Shown piece after piece: positions 1 through 35,774 of a stretch of 35,774 nucleotides of DNA (positions are counted from its first letter, which is position 1; every line of letters begins with the position of its first letter). The notes beneath the pieces were generated by a model, which was not told the DNA's origin, did not search any database, and saw nothing but the letters and a program-made list of their open reading frames with translations. The stretch is from a virus (lineage: Duplodnaviria > Caudoviricetes), in the IMG/VR virus record IMGVR_UViG_3300017766_003544, positions 1 through 35,774 of that record; one strand, 5' to 3'. Made by a program: the position numbers and the translations under genes.

Positions 1-58
1 AAAAGGAGAGAACGAGCTAGACCCCACCAGCGCAAAAAGATTCCTTTCCCACCCCCCC

Positions 59-296
59 GTGACCAGTGACCACCCTTCCACCCCCACAGCATCGACTCCT
101 GATATTACCAACTACCCTCCAACAGGTCACAAAGGTCACATGATCACACTTCCTGCAAAATCAAAGCCTCCAGCGTGACCATGGCGTGACCATTGTCGGC
201 GGAAAGCCCGTTTTTGTGACCTAAAAAAGGGGCGCGGGGTGCTCGATGCACCCTGCGCCCCTTCCTATGATGGTCTGTGACCATCCGCGTGATCAC
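59..296. repeat. Cluster of GTGACC/GGTCAC/GATCAC hexamers, candidate replication origin (iterons)
   Basis: GTGACC at 59, 66, 175, 186, 216 and 277; GGTCAC at 125 and 134; GATCAC at 142 and 291. The DNA is non-coding and directly downstream of the helicase gene. The origin role is inference. Confidence 0.5.
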
Positions 297-302
297 ACAT
301 CG

Positions 303-1922
303 TCACAGCCATTCGAGTGGATATTCAGCCCCTCGCCGCTGGTGACGCTTCCCAAAACGAAACGCCCGTCGTGTCGTCGTCGTGACCAGTTCGCGCCCTC
401 TCCATCGCTTCAGTTCGTGACCGATCCGCTTGCGATCCTTCTCCCCGAGTTCCTTGTCGCCCTCAGCGCCACAAAGATCCTCCAGCAGCTTCTCCGACCT
501 CGCTGCCGCAATGATGTCGTGAGTCGTGAACACTGCCTCCTTCAGCAGATCATCTCCCGCCTCCTTCTCCAGCCGCTCTGCGATACTCACCAGCAACTGC
601 CGCCACTCCTCGCCACGGCGGTCCCCGCTCATCGGCAGCTCCGCCTTCAGCATCGGCCTACCCAGCCCCTGCCCACCATCTGGCAAAGCAGCCACGATGC
701 CGCCGATCATCCCGCTCCATGCCTCAAAAGTAGGCTTACAATCCTGCCCCACAGGCTCCCCCTGGGACATCCAATGCCTCACCAGCGCAGACATCGCCGC
801 CAGTGACTGCGCCCGCACCTCGGGCCGTGACCAATACCCCGGCTCGATGTTCCTTTTAAATGTCCGCTTCTCGATGTCACCAGGCACGAACAATTCACAC
901 ACCAGAGACCGCCGCATCAAGTCGGGCGTGATCTCCAGATTGTTCGCCGTCACACTCACCGTCGTCACATTCGGCACATCAAACTCCTCATTGCCCCCGA
1001 GCTTGCGCCCCGCATGGCGTCTCGACGTAATGAACCGATTCAGCGCATTCGATGCCACCCAGCTCGGCGCATCATCCAGGAAAAGATAAGGCCTCATATT
1101 CATCGCCGTCGTGTTGAGCAGCTTCTCAAATTCCTCCCGACTCTCCGGCAGCGACACCGTCGCCACATCTCCGAAGACATGCGCCAGAGCCGCCTCCGCC
1201 AGCACGCTCTTCCCCGACCCCTGCTGATTCGCCACCCACAGAAAAAGCGGCCTCGGCGTCCCCGTCGGCAGCAACAGACGCGTGTAGGTCGAGAGCATCG
1301 CCGCGATCTGCACCGCGAACGAGCGATTGAGGAAAAGCCAGTCCTTCCGCACCTCCTGCTCCCACGCAAATTCAAACTCCCCAAACTGATCCCACAGCCA
1401 CTGCATCGCCGCCTGCACCGACATCTCCCGATCATACGGGATGCCATCATTGCACCACACCTTGCATTCCTTGTCGTAGCCAGCCGCCAGCCATTCCACC
1501 GCGCCCGACTCACGCCGCACCGGCACCGACACCGGCACGATCCCCTCCAGTTGTGGCAGCCGTCTCGTAAATTGCCGACACTCCAGCACCTTCGCGGCCA
1601 TATCCTTCCCCATCGTCATCACGCGGGGGCCTTGCTGGCCGAACTTAATGCATGTTACATACTCCTCGATCAGCGTGCAAAAGCGGTCCTTACTCACCGG
1701 CACCATCTTCCCCGCCTCCACCGTGACCACTTCATCACCGCGCGCAAAGATGTCACAGCGGGACAGCAGCCCCCCGAGCTGCTCCGCGATCTTCAGCGTC
1801 TGCTCATCCAGATTGATCTGCGGCACCATATCAGCCTGCCCAGGTAGATCGATCCCCGCCTGTGCAGCCAGCGGAGCCAGCAGCCTCAGCGTCTCCATCG
1901 GTATCTTCGCCGCATCATTCAT
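303..1922 (-). CDS. Phage P-loop NTPase / replicative helicase (primase-associated, SF3-like)
   Basis: Walker A ANQQGSGKS, Walker B YLFLDD, then VTANN...DLMRR. ATGA overlap with the upstream primase. Confidence 0.75.
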   Translation of the reverse strand: MNDAAKIPMETLRLLAPLAAQAGIDLPGQADMVPQINLDEQTLKIAEQLGGLLSRCDIFARGDEVVTVEAGKMVPVSKDRFCTLIEEYVTCIKFGQQGPRVMTMGKDMAAKVLECRQFTRRLPQLEGIVPVSVPVRRESGAVEWLAAGYDKECKVWCNDGIPYDREMSVQAAMQWLWDQFGEFEFAWEQEVRKDWLFLNRSFAVQIAAMLSTYTRLLLPTGTPRPLFLWVANQQGSGKSVLAEAALAHVFGDVATVSLPESREEFEKLLNTTAMNMRPYLFLDDAPSWVASNALNRFITSRRHAGRKLGGNEEFDVPNVTTVSVTANNLEITPDLMRRSLVCELFVPGDIEKRTFKRNIEPGYWSRPEVRAQSLAAMSALVRHWMSQGEPVGQDCKPTFEAWSGMIGGIVAALPDGGQGLGRPMLKAELPMSGDRRGEEWRQLLVSIAERLEKEAGDDLLKEAVFTTHDIIAAARSEKLLEDLCGAEGDKELGEKDRKRIGHELKRWRGRELVTTTTRRAFRFGKRHQRRGAEYPLEWL

Positions 1923-2980
1923 CGTCCCATCCTCCTTTGTAAAATGTTCGAGTTAGGCCGGGGACGCGGGTCCAGATACCACAGCTCCTGGAGAGACTCA
2001 CCGCGCAGACACCCCGGCAGCCGAGTCAGCCGCACCGCAGTCATCGCCGCAGGGTCAGCCCCCAGCGGAGCCAGCAGTTGCACCAGCATATCCCGCTGCA
2101 CATCCCACTCAGCTTTGGAGGCCACATCCACGCGCACCAGCGCATGCACACTCCGCCCGCCCGAAGTATAGATCGCCACGACCTGGAGCGGCAGTTGCAC
2201 CAGCAGCCGCAGCCATTCCGCCATCGGAGCCACATCATTCTCCAGCACCAGATAGCGCCACGCCGTCACGCAGGCACCATGCCTCCTGCCCCACTTAGCC
2301 TGGCCGTCAAAGCCCACCGCGTCACTGTTCACCTTCCATTCACCCGAGACCGGATTACAGAGGAACCACACCCCATCGGGACCGCCCAGCGGCAGATCCG
2401 ACTTCACCGGCTTCACCCCCCGATCACGGCCCAGCCTCCACCCGCTCCCGCCCACATGGTATCCATAATCCCCCTGCGACGTGAACTTCGTAAAGATCAG
2501 CAACTTCTCTCCCGCCTCATACAGCGCCTCCAGAAAAGTATCCCCCACCCCCCGCATCCCCGGCGTCACCGCCATCGGAGACACCGCCATCAGCCACTCC
2601 CGCGAGATCACCTCCTTCACATTCCCCGCCATCGCCTCCAGCTTCTTCAGATCAAACGGCGGACGCTTGACCCCACGCTCCGGCCTCGGAGCCGCAGCCG
2701 TTTTCCCATAGGCCGACACAGGTGACCGTTTATCCCCATTCTCCAGCCTCCAGATCGCACGGCGAAGTTGCAGGTTAAACTCCGCCACCTCCGCAGAGCA
2801 GCTCGAATGAAAACAAAAGCCCGTCGGCACCGTCTCCAGCGACACCTTAAAATCACGCCTCCCTCCGCCCTTCGTATGTCGCCCCACACCAGGGCAGGCA
2901 GCATACCCCCCCGGCTCCAGTGCCGCGATCCCCAGCAGCTCACAGGCCACCCTTTCCCGTTCGTTAATGTTCATCGTCAT
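1919..2980 (-). CDS. DNA primase/polymerase (AEP/RepB-primase-like) with N-terminal Cys/His cluster
   Basis: Motifs YLVLEND, YTSGGRSVHALVRV and DPAAMTAVRLTRLPG. N-terminal CPG..HT...CFHSSC. Adjacent to the helicase. Confidence 0.7.
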   Translation of the reverse strand: MTMNINERERVACELLGIAALEPGGYAACPGVGRHTKGGGRRDFKVSLETVPTGFCFHSSCSAEVAEFNLQLRRAIWRLENGDKRSPVSAYGKTAAAPRPERGVKRPPFDLKKLEAMAGNVKEVISREWLMAVSPMAVTPGMRGVGDTFLEALYEAGEKLLIFTKFTSQGDYGYHVGGSGWRLGRDRGVKPVKSDLPLGGPDGVWFLCNPVSGEWKVNSDAVGFDGQAKWGRRHGACVTAWRYLVLENDVAPMAEWLRLLVQLPLQVVAIYTSGGRSVHALVRVDVASKAEWDVQRDMLVQLLAPLGADPAAMTAVRLTRLPGCLRGESLQELWYLDPRPRPNSNILQRRMGR

Positions 2981-3115
2981 TATCTTGGTTGTAAATGATG
3001 GGGCTCACCGCCCGCGTTGCTTGCATCCATCCATGTCATAAAATCCCCGCCTAACAAAAGGAACTCCGATTGCTGCCAAAAACTGCCCACAGCTCACGCT
3101 ACACACACAGTAAAA

Positions 3116-4114
3116 TCAGGCCGCTCGCCGACTCTCAAAGCTCACCACATTCCCAGGCAACGGCAGCACATCCAGCGGACTCGTGATCGACTCCGCGAAC
3201 CTCGGCACACAATGCAGATACACCTGCGTCGTCTCCACCGAGTTATGCCCCAGCAGCTCCTGCACCTGCGTAATACTTGCCCCACCCGCCAGCAGATTCG
3301 TCGCGAAAGAATGCCGCAGCGTGTGGGCCGTCACCCGCTTATGCAGCCCCACCTTCCTCGTCGCCAGCTTCAGCGCCTTCCCCAACGTATCCTCATGCAC
3401 ATGATGCCGGCGCACGATGCCCGTGCGAGGATCAGTGCTCTCATTCATCGCAGGCCACAGCCAGAACCACGGCCACTCCCTTCCCCCATTCGTAAACTTC
3501 CGCTCCAGTCCATCCGGCAGAAAGATCGCATTCGCACCCGCAGCACGGTCCCGATCATACACAACACGCACCCGCTCAAAATGAGCATGCAGCCGATGCA
3601 CCAGAGACCGAGGTAGCACCGTCACCCGGTCCTTGTCCCCCTTACCCCCGCGCACCGTCACCAGACACGCCTCCAGATCGATGTCCTTCACCCGCAGCGC
3701 CAGCAGCTCCGCCACGCGCAGCCCCGAACCATACGCCAGCTCCGCCATCAGTCTCGTCCCCGCAGGCATCACCGCCAGCAGCCTTTGCATCTCCTGTGGA
3801 GACAGCCATGTCGGCAGCCGCTTCGGACGCTTCGCCCTCGCCCACTTCCCCAGATCCCCCAGCGGCTCCCTCACCACATCCCGATACAGAAAAACAATCG
3901 CATTCAGAGCCTGATTCTGAGTCGATGCCGAGCACCTCGGAGCCAGCTTCTCCAAAAATGTCCTCACCCTCTCCTCACGCGGCTGATGCCCACAAGCCTT
4001 CACATGCGCCCCAAAACGAGCGATCCACCCCGCATAAGTGACCTCAGTGTGCCTCGAAAGCCTCCGAATCCGGCAGACCATCCGCACCTGCTCAAGCATC
4101 TCGTCGAGTTTCAT
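3116..4114 (-). CDS. intI: Integron integrase (IntI-family tyrosine recombinase)
   Basis: SASTQNQALNAIVFLY, RLPTWLS, YGSGLR, GGKGDKDR, the IntI-specific insertion (LPDGLERKF...WPWFWLWP...DPRTGIVRRHH), HTLRHSFAT and LLGH...TTQVYLH. All catalytic R-K-H-R-H-Y residues are present. Confidence 0.95.
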   Translation of the reverse strand: MKLDEMLEQVRMVCRIRRLSRHTEVTYAGWIARFGAHVKACGHQPREERVRTFLEKLAPRCSASTQNQALNAIVFLYRDVVREPLGDLGKWARAKRPKRLPTWLSPQEMQRLLAVMPAGTRLMAELAYGSGLRVAELLALRVKDIDLEACLVTVRGGKGDKDRVTVLPRSLVHRLHAHFERVRVVYDRDRAAGANAIFLPDGLERKFTNGGREWPWFWLWPAMNESTDPRTGIVRRHHVHEDTLGKALKLATRKVGLHKRVTAHTLRHSFATNLLAGGASITQVQELLGHNSVETTQVYLHCVPRFAESITSPLDVLPLPGNVVSFESRRAA

Positions 4115-4135
4115 AAGTTTCCGTTTTTCACCTGT

Positions 4136-4172
4136 CTATCTGGAAAGTTGTTCGGGATAATCACTGTTCGGC
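4136..4172 (+). other. attI: attI-like recombination site A (crossover G|TT at 4166/4167)
   Basis: CTATCTGGAAAGTTGTTCGGGATAATCACTGTTCGGC lies just upstream of intI, the canonical attI position. GTTCGGCAG is the exact complement of CTGCCGAAC at the first attC. 32/34 nt identical to 32721-32754. Confidence 0.8.
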
Positions 4173-4405
4173 AGATACATGAAGCTTGGGTAGGCCGTTC
4201 CTATCAAATCTTCCACCCGACAATGCCACTCATCGAGTTCGTGAGATTTTGCCCATGCCTCCATGATCGGCTCAACCAGCACGAGGATTTCCAGCATAGC
4301 CTTTTCTCGGCACGCGCAGGCGTGGTGGTGAGTTGCGCCAACTGCCGAACAAGGCGAGGCAGCGCAACCCTCAGGAGCGGGCAAGTTTGTTTTTGGATCA
4401 GGCAT
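4136..4405 (-). CDS. Cassette 1 hypothetical protein (starts in attC1, ends in attI-A)
   Basis: 89 aa ORF. ATG at 4405 is inside attC1 and overlaps the upstream stop. The tail NSDYPEQLSR* is encoded by attI. Confidence 0.7.
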   Translation of the reverse strand: MPDPKTNLPAPEGCAASPCSAVGATHHHACACREKAMLEILVLVEPIMEAWAKSHELDEWHCRVEDLIGTAYPSFMYLPNSDYPEQLSR

Positions 4406-4446
4406 CTAGGGCGCTCCTTTCGGGTTGCTGCTCTTTTGCGTTCGCC
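4344..4446 (+). other. attC: attC site 1 (103 bp)
   Basis: R'' GCCGAAC, 5 nt, L'' GAG(G)CAGC ... L' GCTGCTC, 6 nt, R' GTTCGCC. The stem extends (CAACCC/GGGTTG, AGGAGCG/CGCTCCT). Confidence 0.88.
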
Positions 4447-4745
4447 TCAACAACTCGCGTCCAATGGATCGCCATGAAGTCGAGCAAGTGGTTTCCATCA
4501 TCTCCTATCGTTGACCGTCCCGCAGCTTTCGCCGCACGCCGTTGCAGGTTGATGCAGTCGTTTATCGTGGCGCGGAGGATGATGTGCGCGTCCAAGTCGT
4601 TGCCTTCCGGTCCGCACGCTGGCCACGGCTCGCACCATTGGAGCATCGTTTCATGCCGGGATTCCAGCAAGGCGAACAAGGCAGTGGACTCAACGCTGAC
4701 CGCGTTGGAGTCCCCCGTGTTTTCAATGTCTTCTTTCGCGGTCAT
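4398..4745 (-). CDS. Cassette 2 hypothetical protein (starts in attC2, ends in attC1)
   Basis: 115 aa. ATGA overlap at 4742-4745 inside attC2. The tail NAKEQQPERSALDA* comes from attC1. Confidence 0.7.
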   Translation of the reverse strand: MTAKEDIENTGDSNAVSVESTALFALLESRHETMLQWCEPWPACGPEGNDLDAHIILRATINDCINLQRRAAKAAGRSTIGDDGNHLLDFMAIHWTRVVEANAKEQQPERSALDA

Positions 4746-4769
4746 CGTGAGTCACTTTTATCGTTCGCT
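4671..4769 (+). other. attC: attC site 2 (99 bp)
   Basis: R'' GGCGAAC (complement of cassette start GTTCGCC), 5 nt, AGT(G)GACTCA(A)CGCTGACCGCG ... CGCGGTCATCGTGAGTCACT, 6 nt, R' GTTCGCT. Two extrahelical bases. Confidence 0.92.
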
Positions 4770-5014
4770 AAGGAGATTTTTACCGAGACATCCAGCACCG
4801 GCTGGAATCCCTTGATGTATTCGAGGAGGTGGTATCTTTCCGCCCATCCCTCCAGCCTGCCGGGACTCAGCATTTCGGAACCATCAGCACAGGATGCGAC
4901 ATCTGCATGGATAGCCTTGCGAGCCTGAGATTCAGAATCGAAAGGACCAAGCGGGTCTTGCTCTCCCCACTCTTGCGGGGTCTTTCCCCGCATTACATAG
5001 ATTGATCGTTTCAT
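4742..5014 (-). CDS. Cassette 3 hypothetical protein (ends in attC2)
   Basis: 90 aa with an AT-rich start context. The tail NDKSDSR* comes from attC2. Confidence 0.7.
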   Translation of the reverse strand: MKRSIYVMRGKTPQEWGEQDPLGPFDSESQARKAIHADVASCADGSEMLSPGRLEGWAERYHLLEYIKGFQPVLDVSVKISLANDKSDSR

Positions 5015-5024
5015 AAAAATAAAC

Positions 5025-5077
5025 CGCGAACAGGTCAGTCCACCGAACGCTCCGCGCCGGTGACTTTTGCGTTGTGC
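5025..5077 (+). other. attC: attC site 3 (very short, 53 bp)
   Basis: R'' CGCGAAC (6/7 complement of GTTCGCT), 5 nt, L'' AGT(C)CACC ... L' GGTGACT, 5 nt, R' GTTGTGC. Confidence 0.78.
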
Positions 5078-5265
5078 GAATCCATGAACTCGATCTCCGG
5101 TTTCTCGGCGCGCATTTGGCGATACTGCAACTCGACTCGTAGTGAGCCGATGACCACAGCAGCAGCGCGACTGATAGCCATTGCTTCCTCCGCGCTGATG
5201 CTTTTGTTTTCGAGTGCGGCCACGGTCGCGCTCATTTTCTCTCTGAGTGTGTTGATGTTCGTCAT
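5035..5265 (-). CDS. Cassette 4 gene b, small helical phage-type hypothetical protein (ends in attC3)
   Basis: 76 aa. ATGA overlap with gene a. The tail NAKVTGAERSVD* comes from attC3. Confidence 0.72.
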   Translation of the reverse strand: MTNINTLREKMSATVAALENKSISAEEAMAISRAAAVVIGSLRVELQYRQMRAEKPEIEFMDSHNAKVTGAERSVD

Positions 5266-5687
5266 ATTGTTTTGATTCTGGTTCCTAGTTTCCTGCTGAG
5301 TTTGATGTGCTCGCGTTTGATTTCGATTAATGCCTTGGGACAGTCTTCGACTTTCATGTGCAGGTAGCGGTTTGCCACGACGCTATCGGGCAGATTCTCT
5401 ATGTCCTTCCTCGCCTTGCGCTTCACAGCCACTGCTGTCCTTTTTGGTTTCCGAATCTTGCGTGGGTGGTTGGATGGTAGAACCGCCCACCGTTCACGTT
5501 CTGCTTTTCTCTCCACGTCCCTGATGCCTGCCATTGCTCGCCTTTGGCGCTGCTTTTCCATCCTCGCTGCCCATCGGCTTGGATCGGCCTTGATAGCGAC
5601 ATACCACGCAGGCAACGCACAACCAGACGGTGATGCCAAGCCATTCGCGGCGGGCTGCATTGGTGATAGTGCGTCAGGGGCGCTCAT
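5262..5687 (-). CDS. Cassette 4 gene a, basic phage-type hypothetical protein (starts in attC4)
   Basis: Lys/Arg-rich ORF. ATG at 5687 forms an ATGA overlap with the parB-like stop (alternative start 5696). Confidence 0.7.
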   Translation of the reverse strand: MSAPDALSPMQPAANGLASPSGCALPAWYVAIKADPSRWAARMEKQRQRRAMAGIRDVERKAERERWAVLPSNHPRKIRKPKRTAVAVKRKARKDIENLPDSVVANRYLHMKVEDCPKALIEIKREHIKLSRKLGTRIKTI

Positions 5688-5711
5688 GGCTGGCATACCT
5701 CGGCGTCCACC
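5617..5711 (+). other. attC: attC site 4 (95 bp), terminal site with non-canonical R' GTC
   Basis: R'' GCACAAC (complement of GTTGTGC), 5 nt, GGT(G)ATGCCA(A)GCCAT ... ATGGCTGGCATACC, 5 nt, GTCCACC. Confidence 0.82.
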
Positions 5712-7111
5712 CGCCCCTCCAAACCCGCCACATCCACCCCCAGCTCGCAGAGCAGCCCGCCCAACGCCGCACGCAGCTCCTCACGCGACTCCGCCGCATC
5801 AGCAGCCAGCACCATCAGCAGCACCATCACCTGGCGCAGTTGCCATCTCTGGCTTCGATCCTTCGCCAGCCAGCCGCGCAACTCATCCGCCGACGCCATC
5901 CCCAGCCAGGCCGACACCGCCCCCGCGTCCACATCCGTCGCCAGATGCACCAGCAGCTCATGAAAGCACTCCCACGGCGGCCCTGTCATCGCATCCGTCG
6001 GATTCGCCTTCAGGTGTTCCCAAAGCGCATTAAACATCACCTTCATCCAGCGGCCATCCACATCGTCCGCAGGAGCAGAGGCAGACGCACGCTCCAGCGA
6101 TGGACCATCCCCAGCATGCACCGTCACCTCCCTCTCCGCCACCGGCTCCGACTCCGGCACCTCCGCAGCCTCCACCGACTCCGCATCGCGCAGCATCTTC
6201 TTCGACACCAGTAGCACAAACCTATCATCACGCCGCGGCGCAGGCACCACATACACCGGCACCCCCAGCCCCTTCGCCTTCTCCTGCCACTGCCTGCCAT
6301 CCGCATCACGCGGCATGTAGCCATCGCCAAACTCATAGTCAGGCCACGGCTGCCCCGACTCCCCCTGCACATACTCCCCACGCTGACCCCACTCCACAAA
6401 GTGATACCCATCCGCCACCGGATACTTCTTCATCAGCACACCCACCAGCCGCAGCCAGGCCGCCAGCCACTTCTTTGGCTGCACATACTTCGCCTGGATC
6501 GCCGCCTCAGCCGCCTTGTAGCTCAGCGGCTCATTGCCCACCGCATCACAAAGAACCATCTGGAGAGCCCCGCGCATCTCCTCCCCGCGATCCAGCGGCA
6601 GCAGCAGCTCCGCCACATGCAGAGAAAGCCGACCATCCGCCAGCGCCTCGCGCCCTTGCTGCGGCAGCATCTCCCCCAGGTCAAAGAAGAGCTGCACCCG
6701 CTCCACCGACCGACCCAGCGCCGGAGCCAGATCCCCCACCGTCATCCCCATCCCCACGCCCACCTCCACCGCAGTCACCAGCTCCTCCGCATTCAGCGCC
6801 ACCGTGTGCCCGTGATCTTGCAACAAATAAAGGTAGGCATCCCCCTCATCGTCAAACTGGTGGACCACCTGGAGACACCCCCCCCAGCCCAGCTCCTTCA
6901 TCCCCGCAAAGCGGCGGTGCCCCTTCAGAAGAAAGTCCCCCTCCTCCCGCTCCCACACATGGATCGCATCCTGGAGCCCATTCGCCCGCAGAGATTCCAC
7001 CATCTCAGGGATGCCCTCATAGACCCCCTGCCGAGGATTCGCGCTCCACTCCCTCACCCGGCCCAGCGATCTCATCACCGGCCCCGTCATCGTATGTTTA
7101 TTGTCGTTCAT
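5684..7111 (-). CDS. ParB/Srx N-terminal domain protein
   Basis: NPR...SLRANGLQDAIHVW...LLKGHRRF motif followed by an HTH-like segment (VGDLAPALGRSVERV). The start may be 7156. Confidence 0.8.
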   Translation of the reverse strand: MNDNKHTMTGPVMRSLGRVREWSANPRQGVYEGIPEMVESLRANGLQDAIHVWEREEGDFLLKGHRRFAGMKELGWGGCLQVVHQFDDEGDAYLYLLQDHGHTVALNAEELVTAVEVGVGMGMTVGDLAPALGRSVERVQLFFDLGEMLPQQGREALADGRLSLHVAELLLPLDRGEEMRGALQMVLCDAVGNEPLSYKAAEAAIQAKYVQPKKWLAAWLRLVGVLMKKYPVADGYHFVEWGQRGEYVQGESGQPWPDYEFGDGYMPRDADGRQWQEKAKGLGVPVYVVPAPRRDDRFVLLVSKKMLRDAESVEAAEVPESEPVAEREVTVHAGDGPSLERASASAPADDVDGRWMKVMFNALWEHLKANPTDAMTGPPWECFHELLVHLATDVDAGAVSAWLGMASADELRGWLAKDRSQRWQLRQVMVLLMVLAADAAESREELRAALGGLLCELGVDVAGLEGRVDAEVCQP

Positions 7112-7152
7112 CGTTAGAAAAAAAGTTTGTTGTTGTTCATTACCCCGCCCCA

Positions 7153-7947
7153 TCAAATCCCCAGCCGTCTCCGCTCCGCCTCCTCCGCCAGCCCTTGCAG
7201 CTTCCGCCGCAGTTGCAGCGGACTCAGCCCGCGAAACTCCGCCCGCACCGGCACCCCATGCACCAGCTCCTCATGCTCGCGCCTCAGAGCCTCACGCACA
7301 CACACCGGCAGATCCTCCTCCTCACTCGCCTTGCGATTCGTGTTCCCCATCTGCGCCACCTCACAGCGCCGACGCGTCACCCGCTTCTTCGCAAACCAAA
7401 ACTCCGTCAGCCCCATCTCATCGTGCATATCGCGTAGCTGGGACTTCTCCACCACGCCCCGCACCACTGCCTGCATCGCCGCACACACCGCCGAGCGCGG
7501 ATTCCGCGCCCGCAGTCCCCACAGCTTCCCGATCGCCTCAAAGCTCGGCAGCGCCGCCCGCACCACCGGCCCGCGCTCATACGCATACGCCAGCAGAGAC
7601 ACCCGGCGGCCCAGCGCCAGTGCCTCACTTAAACCTCCGGTAATCATCTCCACCACCTGTCCGCGATCTTCAAAAGTCGCATCAGCCACACCAATGTGCA
7701 GATAGTCCCAGCACAAGGTAGAAACCACATGCAGCTCCTTCCGAAGTTTCGCCCGTGTTGGCGGCAGACATCCCGGCATAAGACGCTCACACAGCAGCCA
7801 TGCGCGCAGCCCCATCTCTTTCAGCGAGCACGCATCCACCACACAGGCCACCAGCACCTGGCTAAAAAGCGTCACCCGTGCCGACCTCTCCCCAGCCCCG
7901 TCCACACGGGACGAGTCCAGCGCCGCAATGTCATAGAATTCGTTCAC
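7153..7947 (-). CDS. Hypothetical early protein
   Basis: GTG start overlapping the upstream stop. Part of the coupled operon. Confidence 0.6.
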   Translation of the reverse strand: MNEFYDIAALDSSRVDGAGERSARVTLFSQVLVACVVDACSLKEMGLRAWLLCERLMPGCLPPTRAKLRKELHVVSTLCWDYLHIGVADATFEDRGQVVEMITGGLSEALALGRRVSLLAYAYERGPVVRAALPSFEAIGKLWGLRARNPRSAVCAAMQAVVRGVVEKSQLRDMHDEMGLTEFWFAKKRVTRRRCEVAQMGNTNRKASEEEDLPVCVREALRREHEELVHGVPVRAEFRGLSPLQLRRKLQGLAEEAERRRLGI

Positions 7948-8228
7948 GCCGCCACCTCCTCGCCCGCACGTCTTTCCCAAAGTTCCATTACCGGCTGGAG
8001 CGCCGCCCTCTGCCGCTCCGCCTCCTGCTGATAATTTCGCGCCAGCGCCATCCCCGTCCGCACCGCAGGCATCTCCGTCTCGATCAGCTCCGTCATCTCC
8101 TTCGCCGTCACCCCCGGCTTCAGCAGCGCATCCGCCACCATCCGCAGCACCATCGCCTGCTGCTCCCGCTCACGGCGCGCACGCACCATCAGCTCCTCCG
8201 GCTTGAAGTTAAAAAGATTCCCACTCAT
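7944..8228 (-). CDS. Hypothetical early protein
   Basis: 94 aa, helical, 4-nt overlaps on both sides. Confidence 0.65.
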   Translation of the reverse strand: MSGNLFNFKPEELMVRARREREQQAMVLRMVADALLKPGVTAKEMTELIETEMPAVRTGMALARNYQQEAERQRAALQPVMELWERRAGEEVAA

Positions 8229-8800
8229 AGCTTCCAGCCCTCCCCCTTCAGCCTCTCAAAATTCCGCTCGATCCGGTCCAGCGACACCTCACGCAGAGAC
8301 CCCGCCAGTCCACGACCCCGCCCCATCGCCCGCATCAGCGCCGAATGCGCCGTGCAGTCCGCATCATAGAAGGCCCGCACAAAACCACGCTGCGCCTTCG
8401 CACGCTCCCACATCACCACCAGCGCCGCCTGCCGGTCATAGCGTGCGTCCAGATCCTTCTGCGCCTTCTGCTCCTTGTCCGCACGGCGCACCGCCGCCGC
8501 CTTCGCCAGCGCCGCATGCAGCAGACCATGCCGGCCACGCGTCGCATAGCTCCGCTGCCCCATCGTCCGGCGCGGCGTCTTCACACCCTCCTCCTCATCA
8601 TCCTCAGCCTCCACCGCCTGATCAAACTCCGGGTCATACATCCCCCGGCGGTAGAGTGCAAAGTCCAGCAGCTTATGCTCATAGCCGCCCACCGTCGGCA
8701 TATGCTCCCACGTCCGCCCATTAAACGTCTGCTCCCAGGCCTCACAGCCAGGCCGCGCCGACTTGCGGATCACCTTCGTGATTCGAGTTCCCGCGATCAT
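8225..8800 (-). CDS. Hypothetical early protein
   Basis: 191 aa, ATGA overlaps on both sides. Confidence 0.65.
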   Translation of the reverse strand: MIAGTRITKVIRKSARPGCEAWEQTFNGRTWEHMPTVGGYEHKLLDFALYRRGMYDPEFDQAVEAEDDEEEGVKTPRRTMGQRSYATRGRHGLLHAALAKAAAVRRADKEQKAQKDLDARYDRQAALVVMWERAKAQRGFVRAFYDADCTAHSALMRAMGRGRGLAGSLREVSLDRIERNFERLKGEGWKL

Positions 8801-9174
8801 GCCAGCACCTCCTTCTCCTCGGCACTCATCGCCAGCATCGCATCACGCCGCGCCCGTTGGGCCAGCGTCAGCTTCACATTCGGCTGATCCATCAGCCCCC
8901 GGCACCACAGCCAGAAGTTCATCGCCCGCACATCATCAGCCCCCGACACCGATGGCATATCCCGCCACGTAAAGCCCCGCACCTTCCCCATCGCGTCCAG
9001 CTTCTGAGTGCATTCCCTCGGCAGCCAGCTCGACTCTGGCGACCACACCATCACCTTCCCCTTCCGCCGCTCCGCAGGGTAGCGAGTCAGCACCGGCTTC
9101 GATCTCGAATCCGCCACCACGCCCCCCGCAGCCAAAGCCCGCGCCACCATCCGCCGAAGATCCGCCGGACTCAT
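8797..9174 (-). CDS. Hypothetical early protein
   Basis: Start MSPADLRR at 9174 gives an ATGA overlap with the upstream gene. Confidence 0.6.
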   Translation of the reverse strand: MSPADLRRMVARALAAGGVVADSRSKPVLTRYPAERRKGKVMVWSPESSWLPRECTQKLDAMGKVRGFTWRDMPSVSGADDVRAMNFWLWCRGLMDQPNVKLTLAQRARRDAMLAMSAEEKEVLA

Positions 9175-9386
9175 CGAGCACCCCCTTTCATCACCGCAAA
9201 GTCCACACAAGCCCCGGCCAGCGCCAGCGCCCGGTTGATCTCCACCAGCTTCTCATCATCCAGAGCCAGAGACACCGTCTCCGCCCCCTCAAACATCACC
9301 GCCATCAGCACCCCCGATGCCGAATGAATCGTCACCGAGATCCGCTCCCCCGTTTGGGGTCTCACTGTTTCAAAATCGTCCATCAC
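9171..9386 (-). CDS. Hypothetical early protein
   Basis: 71 aa, preceded by GGAGGAG, overlapping both neighbours. Confidence 0.6.
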   Translation of the reverse strand: MMDDFETVRPQTGERISVTIHSASGVLMAVMFEGAETVSLALDDEKLVEINRALALAGACVDFAVMKGGAR

Positions 9387-9691
9387 AGTCTCCTCCTCCG
9401 TTTGGTTGTTCCATTGCTAAACCCCTCAGCCGCCTGGACATCCGCCACCATGTAGGTCGCAAACGCACCACGCGTCCCCTTCATCGGCTTCAGACCCCGC
9501 GCCCGGCACCGCTTCGCCAGATTATCCAGCCGCAGCTCCAGCGTCTCCCCCGGCACCACCCAGCGCCGCATCAGCTCCTCCGCCGTCAGCGGGCGCGACT
9601 GCCCCGCCGGTGACAGCACCGCCGCCACCGCCTCAATCAGCGACCGCAGCCCCCGCACCTCCTCGGTGAGTTGTTCCAGAGTCGCACTCAT
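9383..9691 (-). CDS. Putative DNA-binding / excisionase-like protein
   Basis: Start MSATLEQL at 9691. PLTAEELMRRW...GLKP...TYMVADV resembles a winged-HTH Xis/MerR pattern (inference). Confidence 0.45.
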   Translation of the reverse strand: MSATLEQLTEEVRGLRSLIEAVAAVLSPAGQSRPLTAEELMRRWVVPGETLELRLDNLAKRCRARGLKPMKGTRGAFATYMVADVQAAEGFSNGTTKRRRRL

Positions 9692-9828
9692 CGGCACAGC
9701 GCCCCTCCCAGCAAAGCCAGCATCACATGCACCAGCACCAGAAGCATCGCACAGGCCCACGGCACCGCCGCATCCGTCAGACACAGCGGCCCCTCCAGCC
9801 ACAGGCAAAAAGCACGCACCCACCTCAT
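9688..9828 (-). CDS. Small membrane protein
   Basis: 46 aa from ATG 9828 with a hydrophobic C-terminal half. ATGA overlaps on both sides. Confidence 0.45.
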   Translation of the reverse strand: MRWVRAFCLWLEGPLCLTDAAVPWACAMLLVLVHVMLALLGGALCR

Positions 9829-10016
9829 GGCCGGGACACCTCCAAAACTTGCGCCTGATAGCGCAGGCACGCCCGGTGGATGTGCCCCACCACATGCAGC
9901 GCCCACCCCGCCAGAGCAGACAGCACCAGCAGCATCACCACACGCCCCAGAAAGCGGCGCACACCACCCCCACGGCGCGGCTCGCACCGCGTCAAAGTCG
10001 AAGCCAGCGTCATCAT
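9825..10016 (-). CDS. Small membrane protein
   Basis: Hydrophobic segment VVMLLVLSALAGWALHVV. Coupled to both neighbours. Confidence 0.55.
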   Translation of the reverse strand: MMTLASTLTRCEPRRGGGVRRFLGRVVMLLVLSALAGWALHVVGHIHRACLRYQAQVLEVSRP

Positions 10017-10327
10017 GGCCGGTGCGCCCCTCCCAAGCCCTTACGCACCAGCAGCGCCCGCAGATCCCGAGGCGCAGGCGGAAAGCTCGCAGCTTGTAGT
10101 TCGGGCTTCAGCCCGTTCTGACTCTCCACACTCAGATGCTCGTCCTGCCAAGCCCGCAGCCTCGCCGCCCCCGCCTCCAGATAATCCCCCACACGGGAAC
10201 TCGCATTCCCCCCACCCGCAGCCGCCCCACTGGCAGACACCCGTCTGTCCGATGCCGAGCGCCCCATCGGTTGCGCCTGCCCGGCCCCCCGTCTTCTTCT
10301 GTTCGTGTTTTGATTTTCGTAGATCAT
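10013..10327 (-). CDS. Hypothetical early protein (contains a REP-like repeat in frame)
   Basis: GGAGG upstream. The peptide ESQNGLKPELQA is encoded by the 34-bp repeat. Confidence 0.5.
   Translation of the reverse strand: MIYENQNTNRRRRGAGQAQPMGRSASDRRVSASGAAAGGGNASSRVGDYLEAGAARLRAWQDEHLSVESQNGLKPELQAASFPPAPRDLRALLVRKGLGGAHRP
10092..10125 (+). repeat. 34-bp GTAG-type REP-like palindrome, copy 1
   Basis: GCTTGTAGTTCGGGCTTCAGCCCGTTCTGACTCT, identical to 11906-11939. GTAG is followed by the hairpin CGGGCT-TC-AGCCCG. Confidence 0.8.
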
Positions 10328-10393
10328 CGTCTTCCTCCGTGTCTTCGTTGTTGGTTGTGCCGCAGAGCCCCTGCGGTGCGGGATTGTAAAAAA

Positions 10394-10564
10394 TCAGGCC
10401 AGCTTCAGCACCTCGCGCAGCCCGTTGCGCACATCGCAGAGCCGATCCACAATCGCTCCCTGCTCCCGGTTCAGCTCCTGAGTCTCCGGCATTGCCGCCA
10501 GCTTCTCAGCCACCAGCGCCATCATCGCCGCCATTGCCGCCCGCTCCTGGGTTGTCAGTTTCAT
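10394..10564 (-). CDS. Small hypothetical early protein
   Basis: MKLTTQERAA..., helical, second gene of the early operon. Confidence 0.6.
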   Translation of the reverse strand: MKLTTQERAAMAAMMALVAEKLAAMPETQELNREQGAIVDRLCDVRNGLREVLKLA

Positions 10565-10595
10565 AAAGGTCAGTGAGGTCAGTGAGGTCAAAACT

Positions 10596-10778
10596 TCAGG
10601 CCGCCGCCAGTTGGCTAACTAGGACCTTCAGCCCCCGCTCCAGAGAGAGTCTCATCACATCCTGCTTAGAGAGATTCGTGGATCTCGATGCCTCATCGAT
10701 CTTGGCATCCAGATCCGTCGAAAGGCGGACTGGGACGCTCACTGATTCAGGTCTTCTTGGGCTCGTTTTCTTGCTCAT
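10596..10778 (-). CDS. Ribbon-helix-helix (Arc/CopG-like) Cro-analogue
   Basis: SVSVPVRLSTDLDAKIDEASRSTNLSKQDVMRLSLERGL fits the RHH pattern. First gene after the leftward promoter. Confidence 0.75.
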   Translation of the reverse strand: MSKKTSPRRPESVSVPVRLSTDLDAKIDEASRSTNLSKQDVMRLSLERGLKVLVSQLAAA

Positions 10779-10784
10779 GGGAAC

Positions 10785-10839
10785 CACTGTATGCAAAACG
10801 CATACAGTGTCAACAAAAATGTGTGCAAAGTTTATACAT
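10785..10839. promoter_or_regulatory. Divergent immunity switch: leftward sigma70-type promoter plus operators
   Basis: Minus strand TTGACA(10813-10808)-16 nt-TACAGT. A perfect inverted repeat CACTGTATGC-N5-GCATACAGTG (10785-10809) overlaps it, with a related degenerate copy at 10819-10839. Confidence 0.75.
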
Positions 10840-10854
10840 AGGCTATTCTAAGCC

Positions 10855-11211
10855 ATGAGCACACCCAATACCGTCTCGTTCCCCGTGCGTATGCCCGCAG
10901 ACCTGAAAGCACAAATATCCGCACTCTCGATCAACCTCGGCATCTCAGAGCAGGACACCATGCGCCTCTGTCTTCGAATCGGGTTAACCGACATCGAATC
11001 CATTAAAAAGGATCATTCCGCACTGGTCAAAGAAGCTGCTGACGAGTGCGGCTCCAGCTTCGCAAGCTGGGCTAAAAACAAAAGCGCAGCAAAAACCAAA
11101 CTTCCACCCATCAAGCCCCAGAACTCAGGCAAGGTCTATGAGTTCCCATGCGATAGCGGCTTGAAAGTTGCCGACGAACACAACAAAGGCGCAGGCTTCG
11201 ACGGCCTCTGA
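10855..11211 (+). CDS. Ribbon-helix-helix repressor (CI analogue)
   Basis: TVSFPVRMPADLKAQISALSINLGISEQDTMRLCLRIGL, paralogous to the divergent RHH gene. Confidence 0.72.
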   Translation: MSTPNTVSFPVRMPADLKAQISALSINLGISEQDTMRLCLRIGLTDIESIKKDHSALVKEAADECGSSFASWAKNKSAAKTKLPPIKPQNSGKVYEFPCDSGLKVADEHNKGAGFDGL

Positions 11212-11233
11212 CATCGCCTAACCATCACCCCAC

Positions 11234-11267
11234 AAAAAAAGCCGAGGCTCATCACCTCGGCTTTTTT
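11234..11267. terminator. Bidirectional intrinsic terminator
   Basis: A7-GCCGAGG-CTCATCA-CCTCGGC-T6 between convergent genes. Confidence 0.88.
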
Positions 11268-11722
11268 CATTTCAACGGCACACGACAGGCCGGGCAGAGC
11301 CGCGACCTCGGTGCCACAGAATTACCGCACCTTCCGCAGGTCATCACATAGCTCGTATGATCGATGATCAGCGCCGCCACGATCAGCAGCAGCCCCACCG
11401 GCCAGAATAAAATCAGCATCACCAGACCTAACAGAAAACAAAACATCGCCCCGCATCCGCTCCCCTTGCTCCGGCGCTTCTTTCTCACCGGAGCCATCTG
11501 CAACGTCGGCGGGATAAAAGCAGGCTCCCGGCCTGCCTCCATCTCACAGGCAGCCAGCTCATCATCCAGCCCATACCACACCTCCTCCCCTTGGCGGCAC
11601 ACCAGCGCCTCCGCCGTCACAGAGCCAGCCTCATGCATCTTCTGGAGCTGCCCCAAAGCAAACGGCCCCTCAGCATCAGCATCTGGGGTGCGGCAAAGCC
11701 AGTAAGTAGTCGGCAAATTCAT
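11267..11722 (-). CDS. GYF_2 (DUF4339)-like membrane protein with C-terminal zinc ribbon
   Basis: EGPF.L.QL..M...G......LVCRQG...W motif, two TM helices, CGRC...CPAC. Confidence 0.7.
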   Translation of the reverse strand: MNLPTTYWLCRTPDADAEGPFALGQLQKMHEAGSVTAEALVCRQGEEVWYGLDDELAACEMEAGREPAFIPPTLQMAPVRKKRRSKGSGCGAMFCFLLGLVMLILFWPVGLLLIVAALIIDHTSYVMTCGRCGNSVAPRSRLCPACRVPLK

Positions 11723-11775
11723 CCTCGCATCCTCCCCGAAAAGTCAATAACGTCAACACCGTCCATCCCGTCCCC

Positions 11776-11904
11776 ATGATCGCCGCCACCACCTGGGAAA
11801 CCATCGCCGCCCTATCCCTCGGCATCCTCTGCGCCATCGGCTGGGGCCTCCTCACCGGCACCCTCCGCTTCCCCAAACGCCGCCGCCCACGCCGCCGACG
11901 TTAG
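11776..11904 (+). CDS. 42-aa single-TM peptide with Arg-rich tail (not in the ORF track)
   Basis: MIAATTWETIAALSLGILCAIGWGLLTGTLRFPKRRRPRRRR*, read directly from the sequence. Confidence 0.55.
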   Translation: MIAATTWETIAALSLGILCAIGWGLLTGTLRFPKRRRPRRRR

Positions 11905-11905
11905 C

Positions 11906-11939
11906 GCTTGTAGTTCGGGCTTCAGCCCGTTCTGACTCT
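11906..11939 (+). repeat. 34-bp GTAG-type REP-like palindrome, copy 2
   Basis: Identical to 10092-10125. Lies between convergent stops, abutting the integrase stop. Confidence 0.8.
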
Positions 11940-32654: not shown

Positions 32655-32720
32655 CGACACCGGGGGGTGTCAAAGGATGCGGGCTCGCAAAGCGGGTGCG
32701 TGTTTCTGGTTTGGGGGTGA

Positions 32721-32757
32721 CTATCTGGAAACTTGTTCTGGATAATCACTGTTCAGC
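32721..32757 (+). other. attI: attI-like recombination site B (crossover G|TT at 32751/32752)
   Basis: CTATCTGGAAACTTGTTCTGGATAATCACTGTTCAGC, 32/34 identical to site A. GTTCAGCAAAAT is the exact complement of ATTTTGCTGAAC at attC5. Confidence 0.8.
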
Positions 32758-33094
32758 AAAATACGAGCGCCTCGCCCTTCTCGGCGGTTGCTTCCATGTC
32801 GTCCGCGAGTTCGAGCGCGTTTTGTTTGTCGTGACCGTCGGGCCAGTCCGCCACGAGTTCGCGGAGTCTCGGCGCGACACGCTTGCATTCCTCTGGCGTC
32901 ATTTCGCCTTCGCAGTCGGAGTGCATGAGCAGCGGCGCGATGCCGTCGGTGATTTTGTGCCACGGTCTTTCCGGTGGCCCGAAGCCCGCCATCTCGCGGA
33001 GGTTCATACCGATTTCCGCAGCGAGCCGACACCGGAAGGCGTTGAAGCCGGAGTATGACCACTGCGCGTTTGATTGTCTGAATGCTAGTCCCAT
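32753..33094 (-). CDS. Cassette 5 hypothetical phage protein (HSDCEGE motif)
   Basis: MGLAF...WSYSGFNAFR.RLA...LLMHSDCEGEM. The TGA stop overlaps the core site. Confidence 0.78.
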   Translation of the reverse strand: MGLAFRQSNAQWSYSGFNAFRCRLAAEIGMNLREMAGFGPPERPWHKITDGIAPLLMHSDCEGEMTPEECKRVAPRLRELVADWPDGHDKQNALELADDMEATAEKGEALVFC

Positions 33095-33100
33095 AATTTT

Positions 33101-33192
33101 GCTGAACAAGACGCTGGACCGAAAGTGGCGGGCCGCGTCATTTTTGTTTTCGTGAGTTGCCGACCGCCACTTCGGTCAGCTTTTCGTTAAAT
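33101..33192 (+). other. attC: attC site 5 (92 bp)
   Basis: R'' GCTGAAC, 5 nt, GCT(G)GACCGAA(A)GTGGCGG ... CCGCCACTTCGGTCAGC, 5 nt, R' GTTAAAT. R' overlaps the terL TAA stop. Confidence 0.92.
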
Positions 33193-34977
33193 GAAGCCGG
33201 GGACGAGGCGGGCGATCCAGAGCGCGATGAGGCCGAGCTTGGAGCAGTCGCCATAGTGGTCGTGGGGGACGCGTTTCCACTGGTTGGTGGACTTGTCCTT
33301 CATCTGGCCGGTGTGGCCCATGATGAGGGAGGCATCAGCATCGCTCGGGAGGTGGAAGCCGGGGGTGCTGCGGCGGGCGATGCGGGAGCCGTAGAGGTCA
33401 TCCTTTGCCTGGGTGTCTGAGTAGGTGTAGAGCTTCAGGCCGGGACGGGAGGCGGCGCGGGTTTCGTTGACGGTGCCGTGCTTGGCGTCGCTGCCTTTGG
33501 TTGGCCAGTAGAAGCCGCCGGAGGCTTCGCAGATGTCATACTGTGTCTCGGTGAGGTAGCCGGAATCAATGTAGCCGATGCGGGGGACGATGCGCTCATC
33601 GGTGCCGGGGATGGTGTAGAGGCGATGGCGGAGGAAGTCGGCGGAGACGAGCTCGCGGGAGCTGAGGAGGGTGCCCCAGTCAATGACGAAGAGTCCGCCT
33701 TCGGGAGAGATGGCGGTGACGGTCCAGTGAGTGAGTGCTTCGCCGGGGTCGGCAGTGAGGACGAGGAGCTTGGGCCGGAAGGGCAGGGAGCCGCGCCCGT
33801 AGTCGGTGGAGATGCAGGCTCGGACGGTTTCCTCTTTGATGTTATGGGCGAGGTCGGACCAGCAGTTGGCGAGCCATGAGTTTGCGTGGTTTTGATGGTT
33901 GCCGAGGAGGTCGGCGGGCTTGATGCGGTTCCAGGCGACATCGCCGAAGGTGAGGGCGGGGGAGTAGAAGGACGGGAGGCGAAAGGATTTGTTTCGCTGG
34001 GCGGTGGCGGGGTTGAGGTCGATGGGCTCGACGCGGTCGAGCATGGGGAGGCGGTCTTCTTCGCGGATGGGGTAGGCGCAGGAGGGGCAGATGTAGCGGA
34101 TGGTTTCGCGGACTTTTTGTTCGACCCAGAGGCCGTGGGAGTCGCGGGAGTCTGGGGACCAGACGAGGCTGCGGTAGTCGCTATCGACTTTCTCGTAGCC
34201 GGGGTGTTTGGAGTCGTGGCTTTTATCGGGCCAGTCTTCGAAGGGGAAGAGGTGCTGACATTCGGGACAGGAGACGAGGAAATGAGTTTGTGATCCGGCT
34301 TCGTAGCGGGTCCAGAAAGGGTGCGTGACAATGTTTGGGGACGAGCTTTTGTAGCGGAAGGCGTCGGGGCCGAAGGACTTGGCACGCTCGTCGGCGAGGT
34401 CCATGGGGTGCGCTTCGGGGCTGTCTTCGTTGGAGTGGTGCTCAAATTTGCAGCACTCGTCTTGAAAAATATCGCGTTCGGAAGTGGAGGCGAGGTTGGC
34501 GGGGGAGTTGGTGCCGGTGAGGCGGATGGCTCCGCCGAGCATGTCCATCTCCATATCCGTGAAGTGGTCGGAGTTGGCGGGTTTTCGCTCGGAGAGGATG
34601 GGGTTGAGATTGATGAGGGGCTGGAGTTTTTTTCTGGAGACGGCTTTTTGGGCGGTGTCTTTGGTTGGGAAAACGATGAGCTTTGGGGAGGGGACGTTGA
34701 CCATCCGGTAAACGAGCATCATGAGGAGGCCGAAGGTCTTGAAGACCTGGGTGGCGGAGCAGGTGGTGACGTCGGTGATGCCACGGGCGGGGTCGGCGCA
34801 TTCGAGGATGTGCTGGGCGAAGCCTTGATGCTGGAGGCTGAAGGGGGCCATGGCTCCATGGACGCGGGCCGGGGACATGGAGCGGGGGATTTGAATATGC
34901 CGACTGAGGAACTCGACCACGGCGGGGCGCTGCTCAACCAAGGCGAGGCGCAGGAGATGGGCGCGGCGGTCACTCAT
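33187..34977 (-). CDS. terL: Terminase large subunit (lambda GpA family)
   Basis: SATQVFKT (Walker A variant), IFQDE (Walker B), SSP, CPEC...CPSC, FRLPSFYSP, IDSGY, KGSD and HYGDC motifs. Confidence 0.92.
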   Translation of the reverse strand: MSDRRAHLLRLALVEQRPAVVEFLSRHIQIPRSMSPARVHGAMAPFSLQHQGFAQHILECADPARGITDVTTCSATQVFKTFGLLMMLVYRMVNVPSPKLIVFPTKDTAQKAVSRKKLQPLINLNPILSERKPANSDHFTDMEMDMLGGAIRLTGTNSPANLASTSERDIFQDECCKFEHHSNEDSPEAHPMDLADERAKSFGPDAFRYKSSSPNIVTHPFWTRYEAGSQTHFLVSCPECQHLFPFEDWPDKSHDSKHPGYEKVDSDYRSLVWSPDSRDSHGLWVEQKVRETIRYICPSCAYPIREEDRLPMLDRVEPIDLNPATAQRNKSFRLPSFYSPALTFGDVAWNRIKPADLLGNHQNHANSWLANCWSDLAHNIKEETVRACISTDYGRGSLPFRPKLLVLTADPGEALTHWTVTAISPEGGLFVIDWGTLLSSRELVSADFLRHRLYTIPGTDERIVPRIGYIDSGYLTETQYDICEASGGFYWPTKGSDAKHGTVNETRAASRPGLKLYTYSDTQAKDDLYGSRIARRSTPGFHLPSDADASLIMGHTGQMKDKSTNQWKRVPHDHYGDCSKLGLIALWIARLVPGFI

Positions 34978-35666: not shown

Positions 35667-35774
35667 TGCGCGGAAGTGCCCTTTGCGCGTCGCGCAGTGT
35701 CAAAGCGCAGACTTTGCGCGGAGGGTTGCGCATTGCCCATTGCGCGAACGCTCTCAAATACGCTTAATTTCTCT

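Follow-up and report, generated by a model that had tools for sequence, protein, structure and literature searches.

A putative phage form of integron in which cassette genes run antisense to the classical orientation and cross the recombination point in one frame

Integrons are usually treated as bacterial elements in which the orientation of a gene relative to its attC site is fixed and inversion silences the cassette. In the classical cassette, as treated in parts of Nivina et al. 2016 (PMC5027507), the gene is followed by attC and expressed from Pc, and the opposite orientation is regarded as non-expressed and avoided. Integrons and CALINs in phage genomes have already been published, as sections of Qi et al. 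2023 (PMC9892861) set out. Short frames associated with the recombination sites are also on record: sections of a review (PMC8876359, citing Hanau-Bercot 2002 and Jacquier 2009) cover ORF-11, ORF-17 and ORF-18 of attI1 and attC mini-ORFs, and state that translation through attC relieves its hairpin. A literature search in which subscription papers were little covered did not find the flipped, frame-locked layout described here.

The window analysed here, meaning the whole 35,774 nt stretch of virus record IMGVR_UViG_3300017766_003544 (35.8 kb), carries genes for terminase, portal, protease, capsid, tail, endolysin and a phage integrase, and every gene annotated in it lies on the minus strand. 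It is a temperate phage with a complete integron, comprising IntI, attI and four attC sites, together with a second attI and a fifth cassette. The integron integrase gene (3116..4114, minus strand; TIGR02249, 331.8 bits against a cut-off of 265) is co-directional with the cassette genes and encodes a second recombinase of the window besides the phage integrase; its residues R133, K160, H264, R267, H290 and Y299, which we take to be catalytic, are invariant among 12 sequences. The host lineage is likely Verrucomicrobiaceae, because the nearest genome-contig relative of this IntI (76%) sits in a Verrucomicrobiaceae assembly. In L228:5430-6630, a close relative on the same contig as L026 that uses the same parB site (related loci are cited by L number), intI apparently has a large internal deletion. 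The GC skew of the window changes sign near 13 kb (1-13000 versus 13000-35000), with annotated genes on the minus strand on both sides. The word TTTGACA occurs on the minus strand at 32667-32673 and 35699-35705, 5' of a head-connector-like gene and of the gene at 34974-35666, and also precedes the homologous gene in L034; it is a possible late promoter element.

The attI1 site (4136..4172, plus strand; GTT crossover between G4166 and T4167, 51 nt from intI) adjoins intI here as in relatives, in which its flank is conserved while the downstream cassettes differ. Its frame-0 stop is TAG 4138-4136 (minus strand), 21 nt ahead of the intI ATG, and among relatives a frame-0 stop lies within 16 codons of attI in 46 of 46 cases. 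A second attI copy (32721..32757, plus strand; crossover between G32751 and T32752; 2 matches against 0 expected) has no adjacent integrase, and its TAG is in the same frame as the genes that cross AAC; it may be the remnant of an integron that lost its intI, served in trans. This copy lies upstream of a gene with a homologue in L034 (58% identity), which directly follows a complete attI-intI (L034:1300-2730). An attI without adjacent intI was also seen at L187:5001-5034, within an early operon, where the frame-0 stop and the start of the next gene overlap as ATGA. In L085 and L091 an ATGA joins the attI frame-0 stop to the start of intI, and in these loci there may be coupling between the first cassette and the integrase itself.

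Five attC sites were identified in the window both by our rule-based finder and by a covariance model trained on 30 attC sites from bacterial genome contigs, which that same finder had supplied. At all five the plus strand is the top strand, and the R'', L'', L' and R' boxes, the extra base and the hairpin are present. They are attC1 (4344..4446, 42.3 bits), attC2 (4671..4769, 38.5 bits), the 53 nt attC3 (5025..5077, 28.2 bits), the weakly scoring attC4 (5617..5711, 18.6 bits) and attC5 (33101..33192, 39.1 bits). At attC4 the R' core reads GTC, which is non-canonical, and falls within the 3' end of a parB-like gene; a nearly identical site lies at a canonical core in L229. DNA folding z-scores for attC1 to attC5 are -2.7, -4.1, +0.6, +0.8 and -2.1, so that attC3 and attC4 fold no better than shuffled sequences; among attC sites of the viral groups the bottom strand is the more stable in 144 of 211. 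For every attC, R'' agrees with the core at the far end of the cassette; cassette 3 has one mismatch. An exact repeat search of the window found no attC family, because the sites differ in sequence. A sixth model match (35599-35695, 19.5 bits) was rejected as having neither AAC nor GTT cores, and a rule-based match at 11178-11317 as having no covariance-model support. The rule-based finder returned no array in phage TJE1, for which a CALIN is published.

The intI gene, attI and attC sites lie in a regular arrangement, with the cassette genes on the bottom strand and read toward attI and into intI. Since these genes are antisense to classical ones, their mRNA is the attC bottom strand. The cassette 1 gene (4136..4405, minus strand, 89 aa) starts in attC1 and ends in attI1; the cassette 2 gene (4398..4745, minus strand, 115 aa; 62 homologues) starts in attC2 and ends in attC1; and the cassette 3 gene (4742..5014, minus strand, 90 aa; no family match) starts outside attC3 and ends in attC2. 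Cassette 4 holds two genes, of which the second (5035..5265, minus strand, 76 aa) ends in attC3 and the first (5262..5687, minus strand, 141 aa) starts at the ATGA in attC4, with another ATG at 5696; the 25 homologues of the latter carry several attC-like leaders between them. The parB-like phage gene (5684..7156, minus strand) reads in frame 0 through the distal crossover and owes its final residues and its stop to attC4. Thus all five genes that cross a crossover (those of cassettes 1 to 4 and the parB-like gene) read AAC as a codon, GAC in the parB-like gene, and stop in the next att site. The DUF7739-like cassette 5 gene (32753..33094, minus strand, 113 aa) has its own stop in the core and starts outside attC5. 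None of the five cassette genes in the main array had a match in Pfam, PHROG or NCBIfam, a protein atlas search gave no usable match for cassette 2, and no close viral relative was found for cassette 5.

The original prediction held that attC sites are translational couplers with stop/start overlaps inside the hairpin, citing ATGCCTGA at 4405-4398 in attC1, ATGA at 4745-4742, 5687-5684 and 33141-33138, and three N-termini encoded by attC arms. Each of these words and N-termini was found at its place inside an attC site. The stop/start spacing is -8 at attC1, which also carries an SD-like AGGAG, and -4 at attC2, where the ATGA lies in the 5' arm of the mRNA hairpin, and at attC4; at these three sites the stop ends the incoming gene and the ATG opens the cassette gene, as expected of coupled pairs. 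The fourth ATGA does not act in this way: the terminase large subunit gene (33187..34977, minus strand) has already ended at TAA 33189-33187, which the R' core of attC5 overlaps, the TGA in attC5 ends no gene while lying in the same frame as the crossing genes, and its ATG opens an 18-codon mini-ORF (33085..33141, minus strand) that overlaps the cassette 5 gene start by 10 nt. Relay mini-ORFs of this type are not enriched in relatives (0/13 and 3/52, against 1/7 and 7/66 in control frames). At attC3, which the prediction had skipped, there is a frame-0 stop only; the ATG that follows is 20 nt further along and lies beyond the site. A stop-plus-restart module in each cassette was thus too strong a claim, with 3 of the 5 sites here carrying one. 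What the prediction missed is the rule beneath these observations, namely that the genes are antisense to the cassette polarity and cross the crossover in one frame.

An IntI profile gave 90 viral and 498 genome loci, and this rule was followed in the best 80 of each, plus L026 and the window, with arrays built by rule, orientation given by the longest ATG ORF and attC sites taken from our own finder. The close clade was defined by IntI of at least 60% and includes the window and one genome contig; the 309 cassettes, clustered to 293 for frame counts, come from related loci, so that the counts overstate their independence. In the close clade 45 cassettes are antisense, 4 sense and 15 tied, and in the other viral loci the counts are 110, 13 and 34, giving 155, 17 and 49 for the viral groups pooled, which is not the classical top-strand orientation. 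On genome contigs (80 of 498 loci) 18 are antisense, 55 sense and 15 tied, and two of the genome loci with antisense arrays contain phage genes, namely L132 (ParB, primase, terminase, portal) and L122 (replication initiator, HNH nuclease). In a quick IntI tree, antisense arrays occur on several branches. Read-through genes are in frame 0 in 49 of 50 cases in the close clade (10 more cassettes have none) and in 89 of 93 in the other viral loci (58 have none), or 138/143 pooled, against 9/26 in non-prophage bacterial controls. Viewed by frame, the 211 cassettes of the viral groups divide into those with a frame-0 gene, which reads through in 131/136, those with a frame-1 or frame-2 gene, which has its own stop in 65/68, and 7 with no ORF. 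The R'' junction, which is fixed within the cassette, has no comparable frame lock (47/32/28 of 107). At distal array ends, many of which are cut by the locus or missed by the finder, the frame rule gives a mixed picture, holding for parB in the window and L228 and failing at several others.

These counts depend on a simple longest-ORF rule and on our own attC finder, with ties in 49 of the 221 viral-group cassettes, and it might be argued that the antisense ORFs are spurious products of GC-rich DNA or that the frame bias stems from codon usage or attC sequence. We regard such an artefact as very improbable. Frames 0, 1 and 2 are represented 13, 8 and 9 times on genome contigs and a flat 9, 8 and 9 times once L132 and L122 are left out, and the background share of in-frame AAC is 0.42-0.63 (306/736 inside cassette genes, 150/239 in window genes). 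Cores lacking a stop in all three frames show the lock as well, in 43/43 and 48/51 cases. Furthermore, the antisense strand appears to be under purifying selection, the cassette 2 body having a pN/pS of 0.13 on that strand and its leader 1.07 (five sequences), and among 56 long antisense cassette genes 21 match Pfam, 13 of them to families of DNA methyltransferase type. On account of the pN/pS of 0.13 and the Pfam matches, we take the antisense ORFs to be real genes. Other cargo among the 56 long genes (L029-L105) includes an RNA ligase and a HAD domain of RNA repair proteins, as well as a PAPS reductase domain and an exoribonuclease-like domain.

The stop and restart halves of the predicted coupling differ in their generality. 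A frame-0 stop lies inside attC in 63/64 unclustered cassettes of the close clade (shuffle 42.0), 143/157 of the other viral loci (90.8) and 61/88 controls (55.4), and the stop half of the prediction stood in 59/60 and 139/151 cases. An open in-frame ATG inside attC was found in 42/57 (shuffle 10.4) and 69/148 (25.5), and in 12/54 controls (8.4). The distance from stop to start falls within -11 to +12 nt in 31/57 close-clade cassettes (shuffle 2.2), 50/148 other viral cassettes (5.0) and 2/54 controls, leaving 26/57 and 98/148 viral cassettes with no start in that range; the restart half thus holds for some sites and coupling is partial. Exact overlaps of -8, -4 or -1 number 19/57 and 29/148, against shuffle means of 1.1 and 2.2 and 2/54 on bacterial contigs. 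Letter shuffles destroy the hairpin, and measured against the other two frames the excess is roughly two-fold rather than ten-fold (32 versus 18 and 15 of 52; 57 versus 18 and 31 of 130). Taken together, these sequence comparisons indicate that the restart half is real but partial.

The near-universal stop half, the restart in only 31/57 and 50/148 and the modest excess over other-frame controls are what would be expected if attC were a termination convention with no functional coupling. Under this explanation the frame lock persists only because a gene cut short at the crossover requires a stop close by, and starts come to lie in attC through the loss of native starts in compact genomes, with independent initiation from A-rich loops or their own SD words. 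An SD-like word is present in attC1 and at 22/57 coupled starts of the distant viral group (5/32 in the close clade). Against it stand the exact overlaps, where shuffles yield 1-2, the retention of the attC2 ATGA in 5/5 copies while the surrounding loop varies, and the predicted pairing of the attC2 and attC4 starts. We consider this explanation possible but not probable. The reading we prefer, with a probability of about 0.6, is a phage format of the integron in which antisense genes cross the crossover in a fixed frame, stop in the next att site and often restart there.

The positions of the starts bear on this preferred reading. In homologues of cassette 1 a conserved His-rich core precedes the next in-frame ATG, and between attC1 and this core there is no start codon. 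In cassette 2 the conserved core likewise precedes the next ATG, and a TTG just outside the attC is TTA in L221 and L197. Homologues thus put the start inside attC1 and attC2, as predicted; the case is weaker for attC4, where a TTG just outside the site is a possible alternative, and fails for attC5, where the gene starts at 33094, 7 nt outside the site, and about 50 of the 150 homologues listed have their first residue aligned with its own (counted by eye). A frameshifted leader considered for cassette 5 was dropped, as the homologues begin at the downstream Met. Free homologues of cassette 2 begin only a few residues ahead of the core and end shortly beyond it; those in cassette form have varied attC-like leaders and variable tails after an Asn. 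Such attC-encoded leaders and tails look like neutral linkers. In L197:1947-2320 the attC of the cassette 2 gene has lost one arm, with leader length kept and an SD-like word gained, as if the cassette had become fixed in place.

The attC travels with its cassette, providing a stop for the gene upstream and, in many cases, a start for the gene of the cassette itself. Cassette 2 is found with the same attC in L194, L195, L220 and L221, where the ATGA of this site terminates four different upstream frames with open lengths of 282-714 nt; the identity of cassette 2 spans exactly AAC to AAC in these four other contigs while the neighbours differ, indicating that it moves as a unit. Contigs of a run that is probably DNA break at cassette boundaries, which fits several neighbours per cassette. 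At the parB site of L228 a different attC is present, with stop and start 1 nt apart. The cassette 2 core carries a different attC in L198 and L206, and attC4 occurs on a distant core in L229, the switch lying at R''. Because one core gene can be found free, joined to an attC at its 3' end only, or as a full cassette with different attC leaders, and because attC4 sits on two distant cores that switch at R'', a route by which new cassettes form may be sketched: IntI would graft start-bearing attC hairpins onto phage genes at R'' (top strand), an in-frame AAC close to the end of the gene would become the crossover, and the neighbour would give the stop. This suggestion is doubtful and is offered tentatively.

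Expression of the array would depend on the operon in which it lies. A candidate early-operon promoter, a sigma-70-like site matching 10/12 positions (10786..10813, minus strand), lies upstream of the array, which the operon includes; it is weak, as 2 such sites were found against 2.2 expected by shuffle. From this site at 10813, transcription is predicted to run through the array toward attI and intI, then into a primase-like gene (1919..2980, minus strand; phrog_2597) and a helicase-like replication gene that is last in the early operon (303..1922, minus strand; phrog_10537, phrog_19930, weak DUF5906). IntI activity and recombination of the attC bottom strand are predicted from sequence, and new cassettes would enter at attI, that is, in mid-operon upstream of intI and the replication genes. 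Selection would keep frame 0 because this is the frame in which att sites offer a stop, and a gene ending in it would be safe whatever its neighbour. An upstream ribosome would open the hairpin hiding the start and then probably restart, whichever cassette precedes, and such opening should matter most at paired starts (attC2, attC4) that have no SD word, as 27/32 coupled starts in the close clade do not. Junctions of the same operon outside att sites also have 4-nt overlaps, making the overlap a local norm, which counts against special coupling.

In its strong form the prediction placed a module in every cassette, selected mainly to shield downstream replication genes from polarity. The array does share a strand with intI and the primase-like and helicase-like genes and lies upstream of them, with no promoter match in the stretch between; the end of intI lies -7 to +8 nt from the next gene in 26/53 loci (counted by eye); and in class 1 arrays, according to parts of PMC11511950, downstream mRNA falls with untranslated length. 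The module is missing, however, at 2 of the 5 sites here and at about half to two thirds elsewhere, a second array lies among the packaging genes, and 135 nt separate intI from the primase-like gene. We find this form unlikely. The same 135-nt gap also counts against the preferred reading of a phage-format integron, as do the misfit of attC3 and attC5, the partial coupling, the mixed picture at distal array ends and the finding that the coupled start region is mostly paired in only 36/81 cases. The premise that attC hairpins hamper downstream expression, put forward as established, is weaker than stated (Carvalho et al.), and parts of PMC11511950 report mostly small effects of attC deletion in class 1 arrays, which counts against a polarity benefit. 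Relief from polarity is nevertheless plausible, because untranslated length lowers downstream mRNA in those arrays and Rho homologues are present (in 4/4 bacterial assemblies checked, above the cut-off in 2). What is gained is most likely expression of the gene that the cassette itself carries, together with an mRNA translated without a break; a predicted and probable consequence is that genes downstream suffer less polarity.

The polarity, the frame rule, the borrowed stops, the overlaps and the occurrence of the same cassette beside different neighbours are all apparent in the sequences compared. If the phage-format reading is correct, it describes a widespread format in which a recombination site is selected as coding sequence and serves as a plug standard for mid-operon genes. 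It suggests that phages shuffle accessory genes, often DNA methyltransferases, during growth, and the reshuffled genes would probably stay continuously translated. It would also explain why many predicted phage proteins have unusual N- and C-termini of low complexity. Since one gene is found free, half-captured and fully captured, the origin of cassettes becomes approachable, and grafting at R'', if true, provides a testable route to new ones.

Among known systems, the phage-borne elements described in sections of Qi et al. (PMC9892861) resemble the window in having intI, attI and attC arrays and DNA methyltransferase cargo, and the Shewanella M16-3 prophage described there likewise has a second attI. 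Those examples are described in these sections as captured host or class 1 integrons, unlike the window, and the annotated cassette genes of M16-3 point away from intI, which is the classical polarity; the main text, in the sections concerned, mentions neither antisense genes, a frame rule nor attC-internal starts. The attG sites of Loot et al. (bioRxiv 10.1101/2022.09.11.507474, in part) share with the window array ends in ordinary genes, here the parB-like gene and the terminase stop. The attG consensus given in that part is GWT, whereas the parB site is GTC, is reused in L228, and leaves the gene intact via an in-frame borrowed stop. Inverted-integrase integrons (PMC13323075, in part) share an intI that is co-directional with the cassette genes, but carry intI on the strand that also bears attC; in the window intI is on the minus strand, the attC top strand is the plus strand, and only the genes are flipped. 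Layout of the inverted-integrase type was seen in a phage at L191:4680-9430 (Virus Rctr41k, KX853513), where an IntI-like "xerD" (39%) is followed by five attC-like sites on the gene strand.

With the classical cassette, as given in parts of Nivina et al. (PMC5027507), the window shares the R/L boxes, the extra base in L'', the AAC triplet and the stabler bottom strand. In the window the opposite orientation is the rule, and expression is predicted from a phage promoter beyond the distal array end. The testable features of an integron were thus found while the classical cassette orientation was not, and on its sequence the locus is best regarded as an integron variant. The closest parallel to the frame rule is of the ORF-11 type, in which, according to sections of the review cited above (PMC8876359), a frame crosses the crossover, the partner gives the stop and ribosomes are passed to the next gene, as proposed for the window. 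The ORF-11 type as covered there is a dedicated short top-strand peptide known from few cases, whereas in the window it is the cargo genes that cross; they lie on the bottom strand, share one frame at almost every read-through junction and have their N-terminus encoded by attC.
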